DNA of 64,000 nucleotides from Dehalococcoidales bacterium (lineage in GTDB: Bacteria > Chloroflexota > Dehalococcoidia > Dehalococcoidales > UBA5627), in contig DAOUFJ010000030.1 in assembly GCA_034429935.1 (NCBI GenBank), forward strand, positions 47,261 to 111,260, written 5' to 3'. Both the position numbers and the translations under genes were made by a program. This document shows, piece by piece, positions 37,820 through 51,535 of this stretch. The notes beneath the pieces were generated by a model that ran no database searches, had not been told where the DNA came from, and worked only from the letters and a program-made list of their open reading frames with translations. How positions within the stretch are numbered: the first letter of the stretch is position 1; the number at the start of each line of letters is the position of its first letter.

Positions 37820-38012
37820 TGGTAGCGGGGGTAGGATTTGAACCTACGACCTTCGGGTTATGAGCCGTTAAATTAGCTTCATCTGTGAACAGTCCCAATG
37901 TACACAGTTTATTCCTTAATTCAGTTCTTGGTGTTCTTTGTCCAGATAGAATCATGCTTAAATAGCTTTTACTTATTCCTAATTGCTTAGCTAATGCATT
38001 TTGACTCATCAT
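37419..38012 (-). CDS. chimeric ORF: XRE-type HTH (element B, candidate int N-part) + att-encoded linker + core-binding domain of the decayed integrase
   Basis: MMSQNALAKQLGISKSYLSMILSGQRTP.. (HTH, 38012-37867), AHNPKVVGSNPTPATK (the tRNA-derived repeat read in frame), then the integrase SAM-like domain. The start lies 2 nt after the stop of the xis-like gene. Confidence 0.7.
   Translation of the reverse strand: MMSQNALAKQLGISKSYLSMILSGQRTPRTELRNKLCTLGLFTDEANLTAHNPKVVGSNPTPATKNDSSLNNLPLRELLILLLDEGAQRKLRLRNLQNTELFELWDNELILRYRTPNTLHESRRFFGHFHQFLGEFPPTVELGKGFLTSFSNCKPATVYRYNALLKQFFDWLGYSWTVKIRMPKQLPEYVEDKDVRS
37820..37866 (-). repeat. att copy 3: 47-bp identity to the 3' part of tRNA-fMet
   Basis: tggtagcgggggtaggatttgaacctacgaccttcgggttatgagcc is identical to 51461-51507. 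Confidence 0.92.
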
Positions 38013-38014
38013 TT

Positions 38015-38200
38015 TTATTTGTTATACTCCTTTTTTGATTTACGTCCTCCTCCTAATTTTCTTTGTCTACAATAATTTAGTTCCAATACTACCCAGTCTC
38101 TAGCCAATTTAACTCCTTTAATTTCACCTTTGGCTAATAACCGCCTTACTTGACTGGTGTCTAATCCTAGCTTGATAGATGCTTCTTTTACACTATACAT
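38015..38200 (-). CDS. excisionase-family helix-turn-helix protein (Xis-like)
   Basis: MYSVKEASIKLGLDTSQVRRLLAKGEIKGVKLARDWVV is the excisionase/MerR-type HTH_17 pattern. 61 aa. Confidence 0.7.
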   Translation of the reverse strand: MYSVKEASIKLGLDTSQVRRLLAKGEIKGVKLARDWVVLELNYCRQRKLGGGRKSKKEYNK

Positions 38201-38206
38201 AGTTAT

Positions 38207-38230
38207 ATTATACCTGTATACAGGTATAAT
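38207..38230. promoter_or_regulatory. 24-bp perfect palindrome (ATTATACCTGTA|TACAGGTATAAT) in the divergent promoter region of element B
   Basis: It lies 7 nt upstream of the xis-like start and contains TATAAT (38225-38230) facing the 38307 gene. Confidence 0.5.
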
Positions 38231-38306
38231 TTCAAGGCAAAAATGAAGAAAAATTTATTGCCATGTATATTGTGTATCTGATGTATCAAATAGTATTATT
38301 ATCACT

Positions 38307-39011
38307 ATGGAAGAAAGCGAATATAAGAGAACAAAAGCTATATTAGATACGGCTAAGAAAAGAGACGTTCCTGACTTTGAGCATACATTAGATATGCGTA
38401 ATGAATGTATTAGATTATTAATGATAAATTTGGTTCAATATCGACCTTTCATTGAGAGGATGAATCAATTAAGACTGAAATATGAGAAATGTGATGAAAT
38501 AAAGGAAAGACCATTAGCTTCAATAGAATCTCTGAGTCAATCTTTCCAAACTATGAAAAAGCAGGCACAGGAATATCTTAAAGATATTTCATCAATTGTT
38601 AGTGATTATGGTCTTAATCCTGATTGGGCAAGAGAACTAATACATGAAGGTATTAATGATTTTGATTCATTAGCTACTGGATTAGATTGTAAAACCATAG
38701 ATGAAGAATTTAGTTTTAATATAACTTGGAATACAGAAAAATTGTCTAGTAAAAAAGAAGCCTTTGCACAAGTAAAAGAGCAATTTAACGAACAATGGGA
38801 TTTATATGAGCAATATTTAAAAAGTATTGGATTTAACAAAAGAAGAAAAAAGGGAGCATTAGGAAATCATGTTATATGGACTTTTAAGAAAGTATGTTTG
38901 CATATGGCATGGCATGAGTTAGCTCAAGACGAAGGTTTATTAAACGCAGAATCATTAAGGAAACCAGTTTATCAAATTATTAAATTATTAGGGCTTAATT
39001 CTACTAATTAA
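38307..39011 (+). CDS. hypothetical protein (element B)
   Basis: 234 aa, helical, no family recognised. Confidence 0.55.
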   Translation: MEESEYKRTKAILDTAKKRDVPDFEHTLDMRNECIRLLMINLVQYRPFIERMNQLRLKYEKCDEIKERPLASIESLSQSFQTMKKQAQEYLKDISSIVSDYGLNPDWARELIHEGINDFDSLATGLDCKTIDEEFSFNITWNTEKLSSKKEAFAQVKEQFNEQWDLYEQYLKSIGFNKRRKKGALGNHVIWTFKKVCLHMAWHELAQDEGLLNAESLRKPVYQIIKLLGLNSTN

Positions 39012-39144
39012 AGAGATAGATGCCTAAGAATAAAGTTAAACTTCAGCATCATATCTAATTAGAGAATATAATTATCTCCTATAGCGTCAAGGATTAAAAA
39101 TCATATCTATACATTCGGAGAAATATTAAGGCATATAAGTTAAT

Positions 39145-49171: not shown

Positions 49172-50230
49172 ATGGGAGCTTGGACAACGCCAGAAGTAAA
49201 AAATTTAATTATAAAAAACTGGTTGTATTTAAAAAATAAAGGATTGAAATGTACAGCATTGGAAGTGCGTAAATTCACATTAAACGATCCGTTGGTTAAG
49301 ACTAAGAAATATACGAATATTCCCGATATTCGTGTAATTCAAAAGATTATTAAAGGAGCTAAGGAAGCTTTAAAATCCATATCAAAATCAGAAGATATGA
49401 TTGATGAAATATGGACACCAGCTTTATTAACTAAGGTCAATTTGCCTGATAATTCAGTCCCTAAAGTGGTTGATGTATGGAAATATTCCTTATGCACATT
49501 CGAAAAATTTACAGATAGACAGGCAAAATGGGCAAGTGTTTTATATCATTTTTTTGATGATATTACTCTGCTTTGGTTTTGGTCTCGTGTTTATGCAAAC
49601 CATGAATTAATTTCAATAGCTGTAGGGGAACCTAATGATACTCGTATATCTGACTCTAATGCTTTTTTCAGCCATTGGGGAAAAAAGACATTAGATGCAA
49701 CCGACTATTTTTATAAAATTAGATATGATTGGGATAACACCTTATTTCTTCCCATAGCAAATGATGGAGAAGTAATAGAGGAGTTATTACATGGAATTAA
49801 TGATCCTAATATGATGATTGTGAAAAACCTGATTAAAGATGAAGAAGAAATTAATCAAAGAGATGAAGAATTAGTTGATTTAATTCATGATTTACCTACT
49901 TTAAAAGCACTCAACTTTGATTTTGAAACTAAACTGGTTTATTTGAGATTTTTTAATTATATTCTGAAAGGTTCTAAGTGGAATGAGTTATCCGCTCAAG
50001 AAGCAATCGATATTATCAAGCAATTGAGAGCCTGGGTTATATCTAAAAAAGAGGAGATGCAAGGTAACAAAAAATCCCGCAGCGAAGAAAAAATAGATTC
50101 TTTTGAATTGGACAAAGAAAATACTATTTTTATCGAAGGAGGTATTGATGAAATATTGGATATGCCTGTTATGCCAGCGAAATTACTAAAAAAGGTTGGA
50201 TATCGGGTATGGACAGGGGGTGAAGAATGA
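49172..50230 (+). CDS. hypothetical protein (element A), ATGA-coupled to the integrase gene
   Basis: 352 aa, SD AAGGAG, no family recognised. Confidence 0.55.
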   Translation: MGAWTTPEVKNLIIKNWLYLKNKGLKCTALEVRKFTLNDPLVKTKKYTNIPDIRVIQKIIKGAKEALKSISKSEDMIDEIWTPALLTKVNLPDNSVPKVVDVWKYSLCTFEKFTDRQAKWASVLYHFFDDITLLWFWSRVYANHELISIAVGEPNDTRISDSNAFFSHWGKKTLDATDYFYKIRYDWDNTLFLPIANDGEVIEELLHGINDPNMMIVKNLIKDEEEINQRDEELVDLIHDLPTLKALNFDFETKLVYLRFFNYILKGSKWNELSAQEAIDIIKQLRAWVISKKEEMQGNKKSRSEEKIDSFELDKENTIFIEGGIDEILDMPVMPAKLLKKVGYRVWTGGEE

Positions 50231-51378
50231 GAGGACATATTACAAAAAGAGGCAAAGACAGTTACTCAATTGTTATCGAGCTTGAAAAAGACCCGATAAC
50301 TGGCAAAAGAAAACAACACTGGGAATCCGTAAAGGGCACTAAAAAAGCAGCCGAAAAAAGGTTATCAGAACTTGTTAATCAACTGGATAATGGCATATTT
50401 ATAAAACCAGATAAAACTACTTTAGCAGAATACCTTGATAAATGGCTAAAAGATTATGCATTAGTTAATTTATCCCCAAGAACCGTCGAAGGTTATGAGC
50501 ATATTATTAAACGTCATATTATTCCAGCTTTAGGGAATATCATGTTAAGTCAACTCAAGCCCGAACATTTACAAAAGTATTATGCAGATAAGTTAAAGAG
50601 CGGAAGGTTAGATGGCGAAGGAAGTTTAAGTACAAAGACAGTAAGACATCATCATGTTACTATTCATGATGCACTTCAGACAGCAGTTAAATGGGGTTTA
50701 ATTATAAGAAATCCTGCTGATGCAGTAACTCCGCCAAAACCGCAACGTCATGAAATGCATACTTGGAATGAAGAAGAGATAAATAAGTTTTTAGAAGCTG
50801 CGAAGTTAACAGAATACTATCCGATATTTTATTTGGCATTGTTTACTGGTATGCGCAGATCTGAAATATTAGCACTTAGATGGCAAGATATAGATTTTAT
50901 ATATTCTCAAATCTATATCAGCCGGAGTTTACATCATTTAAGAGACGGCAGTATTGTTATCAGACAACCTAAGACAGCTAAAAGTAATCGTAAAATAGCA
51001 ATATCGCAATCAGTATTAGCAGTTCTTGAAGAATATCGTGATAAGCAGGAAGGTTTACACTTGTTATCAGGTAACCCTTTAACCGATGATAGCTTGGTGT
51101 TCTGTCATGAAGATGGTAATCCTTTGTTACCGGATACCATAACTCATGCATGGATTAAACTTGTCAGGAAAACCGGATTAAAAAATATAAGGTTGCATGA
51201 TGCCAGACATAGCCATGCATCGTTGATGTTAAAACTTGGCATTCACCCAAAGGTTGTTCAAGAGAGATTAGGACATTCCAGTATTCAAGTTACATTAGAT
51301 ACTTATAGTCATCTTGCCCCGGGGCTTCAAGAAGCAGCAGCAGAAAAGTTTGACCAGATGCTAAATTCACATGTCTAA
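50227..51378 (+). CDS. tyrosine integrase (phage-integrase family with an N-terminal AP2-like/SAM-like arm and core-binding domains)
   Basis: MRGHITKRGKDSYSIVIEL..DPITGKRKQ (arm-binding N-domain), GMRRSE, HDARHSHAS, LGHSSIQVTLDTYSH. Confidence 0.93.
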   Translation: MRGHITKRGKDSYSIVIELEKDPITGKRKQHWESVKGTKKAAEKRLSELVNQLDNGIFIKPDKTTLAEYLDKWLKDYALVNLSPRTVEGYEHIIKRHIIPALGNIMLSQLKPEHLQKYYADKLKSGRLDGEGSLSTKTVRHHHVTIHDALQTAVKWGLIIRNPADAVTPPKPQRHEMHTWNEEEINKFLEAAKLTEYYPIFYLALFTGMRRSEILALRWQDIDFIYSQIYISRSLHHLRDGSIVIRQPKTAKSNRKIAISQSVLAVLEEYRDKQEGLHLLSGNPLTDDSLVFCHEDGNPLLPDTITHAWIKLVRKTGLKNIRLHDARHSHASLMLKLGIHPKVVQERLGHSSIQVTLDTYSHLAPGLQEAAAEKFDQMLNSHV

Positions 51379-51384
51379 TTTATT

Positions 51385-51408
51385 CCGTTAGCAATCCGTT
51401 AGCAAAAA
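51385..51408 (+). promoter_or_regulatory. tandem GTTAGCAA motif (CCGTTAGCAAtccGTTAGCAAAAA), tRNA-proximal arm of element A
   Basis: It matches 44339-44362 and lies 53 nt from the tRNA 3' end. Confidence 0.5.
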
Positions 51409-51415
51409 TAGAAAA

Positions 51416-51449
51416 GCCCCCGAAAAATAACTAATTCGAGGGCTTTTTT
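51416..51449 (+). terminator. rho-independent terminator after the integrase gene
   Basis: GCCCCCGA aaaataactaat TCGAGGGC followed by TTTTTT. Confidence 0.6.
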
Positions 51450-51460
51450 AGCTTTGAAAT

Positions 51461-51535
51461 TGGTAGCGGGGGTAGGATTTGAACCTACGACCTTCGGGTT
51501 ATGAGCCCGACGAGCTGCCACTGCTCCACCCCGCG
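51461..51535 (-). tRNA. initiator tRNA-fMet (anticodon CAT)
   Basis: The reverse complement reads CGCGGGGTGGAGCAGTGGCAGCTCGTCGGGCTCATAACCCGAAGGTCGTAGGTTCAAATCCTACCCCCGCTACCA. It folds into a full cloverleaf with C1 unpaired against U72. Three G-C pairs close the anticodon stem, the loop is CUCAUAA, the T-loop is TTCAAAT and CCA is encoded. It is very close to E. coli tRNA-fMet as I remember it. Confidence 0.9.

Follow-up and report, generated by a model that had tools for sequence, protein, structure and literature searches.

Introduction

Islands that stand in series at one tRNA gene (tDNA), each with an integrase of its own, form a structure that is already known. In the Islander collection of 3919 islands, about half (2083) use anticodon-centred sites and only 159 carry a 5′ fragment of the tRNA gene; the collection contains 125 arrays of at least two islands and only four of at least three (PMC4383910). 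Here, we describe a locus that is very probably a tandem array of this kind, at the single initiator tRNA gene (tRNA-fMet) in 64,000 nucleotides (nt) of contig DAOUFJ010000030.1 (GenBank assembly GCA_034429935.1, positions 47,261 to 111,260; hereafter, the window) from an uncultured member of the Dehalococcoidales (Chloroflexota). Two elements, A and B, and the remnant of a third, C, follow one another at this gene, and in elements of the B and C types an open reading frame (ORF) runs from one element end into the other when these ends are joined in a circle.

Several described systems come close to the B-type layout. In the mycobacteriophages BPs, Brujita and Charlie, immunity is integration-dependent: Rep and Int are separate proteins, and integration removes a degradation tag from the viral form of Rep; the cassettes have no xis gene and are part of temperate phages (PMC3694055; PMC4557955). 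The “suicidal” integrases of the SSV type (SSV1, pTN3, pT26-2), covered by Pfam family PF16795, are exclusive to archaea according to a 2021 review (PMC8371274, PMC7253208). In the host class of the window, the element IME1 has been described from Dehalococcoides; the term “attP” (the attachment site of the element) occurs 0 times in the main text of that preprint, and a frame joining the last and the first gene is not described there (bioRxiv 10.64898/2026.09.15.751708).

Results

The initiator tRNA gene and the copies of its 3′ part

ARAGORN and Rfam find one tRNA gene in the window, tRNA-Met(CAT), and Rfam detects no other structured RNA in it. By eye, this tRNA, for which ARAGORN gives the CAU anticodon, has a C1×U72 mismatch, A11:U24 and an anticodon stem with a run of three G-C pairs (29-41, 30-40, 31-39). 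A mismatch at 1-72, A11:U24 and three G-C pairs in the anticodon stem are marks of the bacterial initiator tRNA. A repeat search of the window returned three direct repeats (37819-37872, 44177-44230 and 51460-51513), all on the same strand and each including the tRNA's 3′ end. Direct comparison shows that the middle one equals the tRNA over 45 nt, from C32, the first base of the anticodon loop, to the CCA end, while the one farthest from the gene equals it over 47 nt, beginning at G30. Two sub-patterns of 30-32 nt hit exactly these three sites without a mismatch (expected in shuffled sequence, 0.00), and no further copy with up to three mismatches was found in the 64 kb. An earlier note on this DNA, made from its letters alone, had called the tRNA-fMet gene at 51461-51535 on the minus strand, the two exact copies of 45 and 47 nt, and the extent of the former from the first anticodon-loop base to CCA; on re-inspection all of this was borne out. 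Within the library searched, nothing relevant turned up on initiator tRNAs as integration targets, and we do not claim that the target is a rare one.

The copies bound element A (44223-51460; 7.2 kb) and element B (37867-44177; 6.3 kb). GC content is 28-39% over 38-51 kb of the window, against 43-54% to the right of the tRNA gene (51001-64000). In the Logan assembly SRR17288841, from the same organism, contig L002 ends at window position 51497, inside the tRNA repeat, a break compatible with repeat-induced fragmentation; contig L004 ends at 37665, about 155 nt before the third repeat, where strain variation in the remnant of the integrase of C (IntC) could be the cause.

A tyrosine recombinase gene lies at the tRNA-proximal end of each interval, as the earlier note had it: IntA and IntB are recognised by PF00589, and the IntC remnant through P0243, an intact integrase of 323 amino acids (aa) with PF00589, to which its N-terminal part is 62% identical (here and below, related contigs are labelled L and proteins P). 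The stub that had been given as frameshifted at 37278-37819 does carry a frameshift (Table 1), but the remnant is a minus-strand one that runs from 37819 down to 37286 and is also truncated at its 3′ end; P0242 and contig L175 share the truncation and lack the frameshift. “Unrelated” overstates the distance among the three integrases: IntA shares 23% identity with IntB (E 5e-6), though the retained part of IntC has no significant pairwise similarity to IntA or to IntB. The three are very divergent members of one superfamily.

Occupancy of the site in related genomes

Informative contigs were reached through exact-protein look-ups of homologues. RarA, encoded beside the tRNA gene, places the window in Dehalococcoidia; its relatives are at most 69% identical among GTDB representatives and at most 75% among metagenome contigs of the Joint Genome Institute (JGI). 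No tRNA stands beside rarA in the 13 loci checked in GTDB-representative relatives, and among the JGI contigs only L085 keeps rarA beside tRNA-fMet, with a zinc-ribbon gene and an ABC transporter next and without an integrase; its differing downstream genes make L085 weak evidence for an empty site. A tblastn search of 174 loci with IntA, IntB, IntC and the helix-turn-helix (HTH) segment gave no extra copies in RarA-neighbour loci.

Three states of occupancy differ from that of the window. In L175, rarA (87% DNA identity) and an identical tRNA-fMet gene are directly followed by an IntC remnant (88%), beyond which the contig has the same sequence as the window toward the FMN_bind gene; both A and B are absent. 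In L172 and L173, the synteny of MFS, radical-SAM, Memo-AMMECR1 and rarA genes is kept and only a B-type element (integrase, 89%) stands at the tRNA gene. Element B and its counterpart in L172 are 87-89% identical, the core genes of the two genomes 76-81%; since B is more alike than the core genes, this argues for horizontal movement. In L167, finally, the flanking core genes are 94.5% identical to window 19539-22162, and the equivalent of 22162 is followed by 1.9 kb (a sigma-70 gene and a terminator), a displaced tRNA fragment and an A-type element (integrase, 95%) in which AbiEii replaces the ATPase of element A; there is no B.

In L172, the 56 nt that adjoin the tRNA in the window recur, with 96% identity, beyond the B-type element. 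As this 56-nt stretch accompanies A-type elements (L167, L169, L171), L172 has an A-type remnant distal to B, and the order of the two is reversed relative to the window. At L172:16382-17150, distal to the B-type element, the proximal arm of the A type (a terminator-like hairpin and GCTAACGGATTGC) is present in two copies. Between them stands a cassette of two genes, one of them MazE/AbrB-like, with 74% identity to window 17600-18179, which is part of a further stretch of low GC (15-19 kb).

The preference of the IntA family for this tRNA extends to other hosts. Its relatives in L169 and L171 (75% and 67%) belong to elements of 8-9 kb between 46-47 nt copies of their hosts' own tRNA-fMet variants, with restriction-modification, Shedu-like and TIR genes as cargo. 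With L167 included, all three other hosts checked (3/3; identities of 95-67%) have the element bounded by a 45-47 nt copy of their own tRNA-fMet, which always begins at the same base of the anticodon loop.

Presence and absence thus vary among related genomes (neither A nor B in L175, B alone in L172 and L173, A alone in L167). The earlier note had proposed serial, independent use of one initiator-tRNA attachment site by different integrase lineages, and the states of occupancy together with the site preference of the IntA family support it. The order of insertion is not readable from the map alone.

A reading frame that continues across the attachment site

The frame of IntB is open upstream and runs through the second repeat, which it reads as HNPKVVGSNPTPATK, in the same frame as at the third repeat. 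At the latter, the ORF at 37419-38012 (minus strand) is a chimera of a 50-aa HTH_3 segment that belongs to B, the repeat, likewise translated as HNPKVVGSNPTPATK, and the N-terminus of IntC. The JGI annotation has this chimera as an XRE-family transcriptional regulator (protein P0241). Neither the chimeric ORF across 37820-37866 nor the in-frame attachment site (att) of the B and C types had been seen in the earlier note.

When element B is circularised in silico, one ORF of 356 aa results, in the order HTH, att, integrase. Single ORFs of 324-356 aa are likewise found in the in-silico circles of B and of the elements in L172, L174, L177 and L228, and in L178, a real contig of 1.8 kb that encodes P0216. 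In all of these junctions (6/6), the fusion frame is free of stop codons over the stretch that starts at the ATG and ends at the integrase core, against 5-12 in each other frame, and the spacers on either side of att vary in length between elements, always by whole codons. L177, L228 and L178 involve a different tRNA, Glu-CTC, in the opposite orientation; the layout is therefore not one inherited accident.

The fusion consists of an HTH domain of 40-50 aa, a tRNA-encoded linker and the integrase. Three called ORFs (P0216, P0290, P0244) span the HTH, part of a tRNA and the N-terminus of the integrase, and in about 70% of 120 IntB homologues the called N-terminus runs into tRNA-derived peptide, from at least 12 different tRNAs. 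Many database proteins of this family that are named XerC/XerD begin with translated tRNA (for example, P0122, P0131 and P0143). In members of the tRNA-Glu type, no start codon lies in the stretch from att to the conserved N-terminus of the integrase, and in the C type conservation at the protein level reaches right up to att. No Shine-Dalgarno sequence precedes GTG 44118, the start of IntB in Table 1; the HTH ATGs of L177, L178 and L228 have a good one. The AlphaFold model of P0216 comprises a confident three-helix HTH (residues 1-40), a segment with a predicted local distance difference test score (pLDDT) below 50 (residues 41-69) and a confident integrase; we read the tRNA-encoded linker as probably flexible. 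The C-terminal part that a split of the fusion would leave keeps the core-binding and catalytic domains.

The motif GTTCACA accompanies this layout. All six of its occurrences in the 64 kb (6/6) lie in element B; 1.24 are expected, and none of 100 shuffles reaches six. Its relative positions are shared by L172, L174, L177, L228 and L178, with one copy 25-35 nt ahead of att and two to three copies past it, a pattern that fits accessory binding sites, perhaps for the conserved HTH.

Frame continuity is a fact of the sequence; that the fusion would be translated, and what the HTH and the GTTCACA motifs may do, we infer from the same sequences.

Probable position of the crossover

The blocks of identity start at C32 in A-type and at G30 in B-type elements in every case. 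In L174 and L177, the two copies differ only past the first ~21 nt of the block, counted from the anticodon-loop end, and the differences in L174 include a compensatory pair in the T stem. Block starts and late differences together suggest that the exchange takes place near the anticodon loop.

The IntB-family elements at tRNA-Glu(CTC) (L177:2244-2325 and 8763-8890; L228:3131-3209 and 9612-9656) have an attachment site that contains the 5′ half of the tRNA and are located upstream of the gene. With the 5′ half replaced, the rebuilt tRNA is severed from its native upstream DNA, which in L177 includes an adjacent tRNA-Gln.

Gene content of the three elements

The features of the locus are collected in Table 1. 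IntB starts 60 nt from the second repeat and is transcribed away from it. Besides PF00589, it has only a weak match to a SAM-like domain, below the cut-off; among structures (phmmer against PDB), it resembles XerA-like 4a8e (1.5e-18) and Brujita Int 5vfz (1.9e-14). The HTH_3 part at the other end of B reads outward across att, and its ATG lies 2 nt past the stop of the preceding gene. A divergent gene faces the leftward operon of B across 106 nt, with a promoter-like site (38235-38207; TTGAAA-17-TATAAT, 11 of 12 matches), although such sites are not more frequent in the region than in shuffles. B also holds several genes of unknown function, and neither Pfam nor PHROGs reveals virion genes in it. 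Against IMG/VR, IntB had no match and an alignment of its family matched only translated tRNA-Glu sequence, while IntA had just two distant matches (33-35%); these elements are therefore not represented among viral contigs.

Table 1. Features of the tRNA-fMet array in the window (coordinates in nt; IntA, IntB and IntC are the integrases of elements A, B and C)
Feature	Coordinates	Strand	Evidence or remark
Initiator tRNA-fMet gene, anticodon CAT	51461-51535	-	ARAGORN tRNA-Met(CAT); Rfam RF00005, 66 bits
attL copy of A: 3′ 45-47 nt of tRNA-fMet	51461-51507	-	Within the tRNA gene
tRNA 3′ part, second copy (45 nt), shared as attR of A and attL of B	44178-44222	+	Repeat and pattern searches
tRNA 3′ part, third copy (47 nt), shared as attR of B and attL of the C remnant	37820-37866	+	Repeat and pattern searches
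IntA, tyrosine integrase with arm-binding domain, 383 aa	50227-51378	+	PF00589 3.2e-29; PF14659 (SAM_3) 2.6e-18; PF14657 (Arm-DNA-bind_4) 4e-6
Candidate arm-type site pair, 2x GTTAGCAA, tRNA-proximal end of A	51379-51408	+	30-nt direct repeat with 44333-44362, 83%
Candidate arm-type site pair (GTTAGCAA), tRNA-distal end of A	44333-44362	+	Repeat with 51379-51408
A-type backbone protein of unknown function, 352 aa	49172-50230	+	Overlaps the start of int; gene of the same size at the same place in L167 and L168
HTH_17 protein (MerR/excisionase type), candidate directionality factor of A	48843-49133	-	PF12728 1.5e-12
Candidate replication initiator of A, 448 aa	47069-48415	-	Weak Rep_trans 1.5e-3, below cut-off; 86% DNA identity to the L167 counterpart
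Cargo of A: SMC-like ATPase, Lamassu LmuB-like, 828 aa	44608-47094	+	PADLOC LmuB PDLC03859 7.7e-30, residues 1-698; Pfam AAA_23, SMC_N
IntB, arm-less Xer-like tyrosine recombinase, 272 aa from GTG	43300-44118	-	PF00589 3.4e-23
TGTGAACA (coding strand: GTTCACA), three copies between att and the N-terminus of IntB	44065-44117	+	Candidate accessory sites of attP-B
Further TGTGAACA/GTTCACA copies	43283, 43329, 37884		In element B
HTH_17 protein of B, 65 aa, divergent from IntB	42974-43171	+	JGI gene call; PF12728
AAA_25 ATPase of B, like the helicase part of primase-helicases; candidate replication protein	39410-40375	+	PF13481 8.9e-28; phrog_2597 DNA primase 4.8e-30
HTH_17-like protein, 61 aa, first in the leftward operon of B	38015-38200	-	PF12728 3.4e-5, below cut-off
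HTH_3 (XRE-type) N-terminal coding part, distal end of B	37867-38012	-	PF01381 1.2e-7, residues 2-31 of ORF 37419-38012
IntC remnant, N-terminal core-binding domain and box I only	37286-37819	-	2-nt deletion between 37427/37428; 3′ truncation near 37326
Candidate body of decayed C (inferred)	22163-37285		Absent from L167; lower GC

A-type elements keep one backbone and have one cargo slot with differing defence genes. The backbone includes the 352-aa protein, for which Pfam, PADLOC and PHROGs give no match. The GTTAGCAA pair stands at both ends of the A-type element of L167 as well, and a hairpin with a T-run lies between the proximal pair and the tRNA-fMet gene in the window. A terminator-like sequence downstream of the tRNA was rejected as native host DNA, since it accompanies A-type elements (L167, L169, L171). 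The LmuB-like ATPase of the window stands without a recognisable LmuA partner. In the relatives, the cargo spans L167:4954-6692, L169:3344-7413, and L171:4876-7441 and 11242-12842; besides AbiEii, it comprises a methylase with a ResIII helicase, SduA_C (Shedu-like) with a SEFIR/TIR protein, and a methylase with an MvaI/BcnI nuclease.

The homology to L167 ends at window position 22162, and 22163-37819 (15.7 kb) is missing there. GC content is 35-47% in 22163-37285, against the 43-54% of the flank to the right of the tRNA gene. The stretch encodes a two-component system, a molybdopterin oxidoreductase and its Fer4_11 subunit, a B12/radical-SAM/PqqD protein, a U32 peptidase and Fer4/FMN_bind proteins, and it may be the body of element C. 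No fourth att copy for the far end of C was found, either by searches with up to three mismatches or by window-wide local alignment, which gave only trivial scores; this weighs against the assignment, and the extent given for C is accordingly a presumed one. As a whole, 22163-37819 resembles a metabolic island. The ~290 nt from the FMN_bind stop to the truncation of IntC (37031-37326) show three differences to L175 in the ~200 nt covered, unlike the IntC remnant and rarA, which are ~88% identical to it; this stretch may be a small insertion that spread recently and cut IntC short. Rfam has no match in these 290 nt.

Discussion

We are confident, short of certainty, that the locus is a tandem array formed by repeated integration at one initiator-tRNA gene, that three integrase lineages took part and that the frame of B-type and C-type elements is joined in the circle. 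The repeats, the genes, the presence and absence of elements in relatives, the site preference of the IntA family and the continuity of the frame carry this explanation. An incoming element would bring, in its attP, the part of the tRNA that begins at the anticodon loop and closes with the CCA end, so that the tRNA would be rebuilt, and the earlier 3′ part with the sequence behind it would be pushed away. A-type elements represent a classical class, with an arm-binding integrase, GTTAGCAA pairs at both ends, an excisionase-like HTH_17 gene, a replication gene and a swappable defence slot. B-type elements and the decayed C belong to a second class, with a short, arm-less, Xer-like integrase at the tRNA-proximal end and an outward-reading XRE-type HTH segment at the distal end. 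Circularisation would join these ends into a frame that leads from the HTH through the tRNA-encoded linker to the integrase, with GTTCACA on both sides of the core. Integration would split it into an HTH protein of ~85 aa with a flank-encoded tail and an N-terminally shortened integrase, and the state of integration would thus set which proteins are made.

What the split frame does is a more delicate matter. The boldest reading, offered tentatively and with slightly more doubt than conviction, is that Dehalococcoidia elements of the B and C types code for a chimeric, state-dependent recombinase: the full HTH-linker-integrase would be made only from the circle, with the HTH acting as the arm-binding part on GTTCACA, and integration would release the HTH as a regulator of ~85 aa and leave an integrase that lacks the arm-binding part. 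Such a system would be the counterpart, in bacteria, of the “suicidal” integrases. Tandem arrays would then yield hybrid genes, here the HTH of B joined to the integrase of C. Several observations weigh against this and speak for a frame continuity without function, in which the HTH is an independent small regulator, the integrase starts at GTG 44118 or its equivalent, and the open frame is a by-product of a stop-poor tRNA, constraint on a DNA motif and shared ancestry. In P0347 and P0394, HTH and partial tRNA are followed by an integrase N-terminus that is out of frame. Some homologues have ATG or GTG at the “VFT/MFT” position, and in P0125 and P0128 an ATG stands exactly where the window has GTG 44118, which makes separate translation of the integrase plausible. 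The spacer peptide (KVFT / KSSQKFT) coincides with the GTTCACA motif, so part of the coding conservation could be conservation of DNA; the six in-frame cases come from elements of common ancestry and are not wholly independent; and the circular forms and the excision of these particular copies are predictions from sequence. Full-length fusions are also rare among database ORFs: a search of 50%-identity cluster representatives with P0216 gave many HTH-only and integrase-only clusters and, apart from fragments, no full-length fusion, although fused and unfused forms cluster together at this level and no frequency of fusion is obtainable from it. A functionless frame nevertheless sits badly with six open junctions out of six, free of the stops that fill the other frames despite changes of spacer, two tRNAs and opposite orientations. 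It also leaves the tRNA-Glu-type members with no start codon for a separate integrase, the C type with protein conservation as far as att, and GTG 44118 with no Shine-Dalgarno sequence of the kind found before the HTH ATGs of L177, L178 and L228. We regard it as doubtful, while giving it real weight beside the state-dependent recombinase.

Two further explanations concern the array itself. A, B and the C remnant could be one composite island, grown by accretion and moving or lost as a unit: since the three att copies share 45 identical nt, either integrase could recombine the outermost ones, and tandem accretion with co-transfer has been documented for other systems (PMC13651849). Relatives with A alone, B alone or neither, and the failure to find an A+B unit at another site in any contig, make this improbable as an account of the locus; it is compatible with serial integration at the tRNA gene and does not replace it. 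That the tRNA copies are local duplications or pseudo-tRNAs in 14 kb of ordinary conserved chromosome has nothing but the bare presence of repeats in its favour. Each copy is paired with an integrase on the expected side, every copy runs from the anticodon loop through the CCA end, the same architecture recurs elsewhere with host-specific tRNA variants, and the varying occupancy in L175, L172 and L167 contradicts it; we give this explanation almost no credence.

By itself, the array is ordinary; its interest lies in the natural experiment that it provides and in the split HTH-integrase frame. One identical 45-nt core, three integrase lineages, and unoccupied and singly occupied states in relatives make it a natural case for studying how divergent integrases read one tRNA site, and this in a phylum that has received little study and whose genomes are very small. 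The split frame, if functional, would give bacteria a recombination switch that has been thought archaeal, coupling the physical state of an element to the proteins made and having the targeted tRNA dictate the sequence of the linker. For annotation, “XRE regulators” and over-long “XerD” proteins with tRNA-derived peptides are products of this architecture.

Lambda- and P4-type integrases are heterobivalent. Element A resembles them in its N-terminal arm-binding domain (PF14657), in the repeated candidate arm sites at both ends and in the excisionase-like HTH_17 gene; it differs in that the A type is known from sequence only, targets tRNA-fMet specifically, in Chloroflexota, and has defence genes as cargo. 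With tRNA island arrays (Islander, PMC4383910; the Klebsiella asn tDNA, PMC4891358), the locus shares the series of tyrosine-integrase islands, each with its own integrase and a displaced tDNA fragment, and the anticodon-centred attP that regenerates the tRNA. As in an Islander array, there is an intact tDNA with displaced fragments in the same orientation, integrases of their own and polymorphism, the third member being decayed and without a distal fragment. What sets the locus apart is the host, an uncultured Dehalococcoidia, the initiator tRNA as target, the three tiers (one of them a remnant) and the two architecturally different classes of integrase.

Element B shares with IME1 (bioRxiv 10.64898/2026.09.15.751708) the host class, a place downstream of a tRNA or pseudo-tRNA, a primase-helicase, a GC content below that of the host, and the arrangement of an XerCD-type recombinase as the first and a Cro/C1-type HTH repressor as the last gene. 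IME1 is larger (21-28 kb; about 23 kb in its definition) and has a virion/extrusion module, a pI-like ATPase and a large metallophosphoesterase-like coding sequence, none of which occurs in the 6.3 kb of B. In Myxophage Mx8, a bacterial attP likewise lies inside the integrase coding sequence (intP) and integration alters the gene; there the 3′ end, and with it the C-terminus, is changed, whereas in the B type it is the 5′ end and the N-terminus (PMC6070905).

If the continuous ORF is taken as the gene, the B type has in common with the SSV-type integrases a tRNA-fragment attP inside the integrase ORF, a separation of the N-terminal from the catalytic part, and, in arrays, halves of different elements that become neighbours. 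There is no sequence relationship between the two: the B type has PF00589 and not PF16795, its nearest structures are Xer and Brujita, and its host is bacterial. The part that is detached in the B type is a separate HTH on a linker with pLDDT below 50, so that, in a further difference from the SSV type, the remaining integrase keeps its core-binding and catalytic domains.

With BPs, Brujita and Charlie, finally, B-type elements share a co-oriented HTH gene and int, an attP inside the HTH frame, so that integration alters the C-terminus of the HTH protein and separates int from it, a small integrase of the Xer-like kind that lacks an arm-binding domain, and, beyond a short control region, a gene in divergent orientation; Brujita Int (5vfz) is also the top Foldseek match to the P0216 model (E 3.7e-11). 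A look by eye revealed no ssrA-like degradation tag in the B type. The differences are that the B-type HTH frame continues into int as one ORF, that the HTH is only ~40-50 aa long, that HTH_17 excisionase-like genes are present (two in B), that the elements measure 6-10 kb and lack virion genes, that the hosts are Chloroflexota and not Actinobacteria, and that some members replace the 5′ half of the tRNA. The architecture of the B and C types is best described as joining the integration-dependent immunity of mycobacteriophages with the self-splitting integrases of archaea, and, if the reading as a state-dependent recombinase is true, it would be a missing link between the two.

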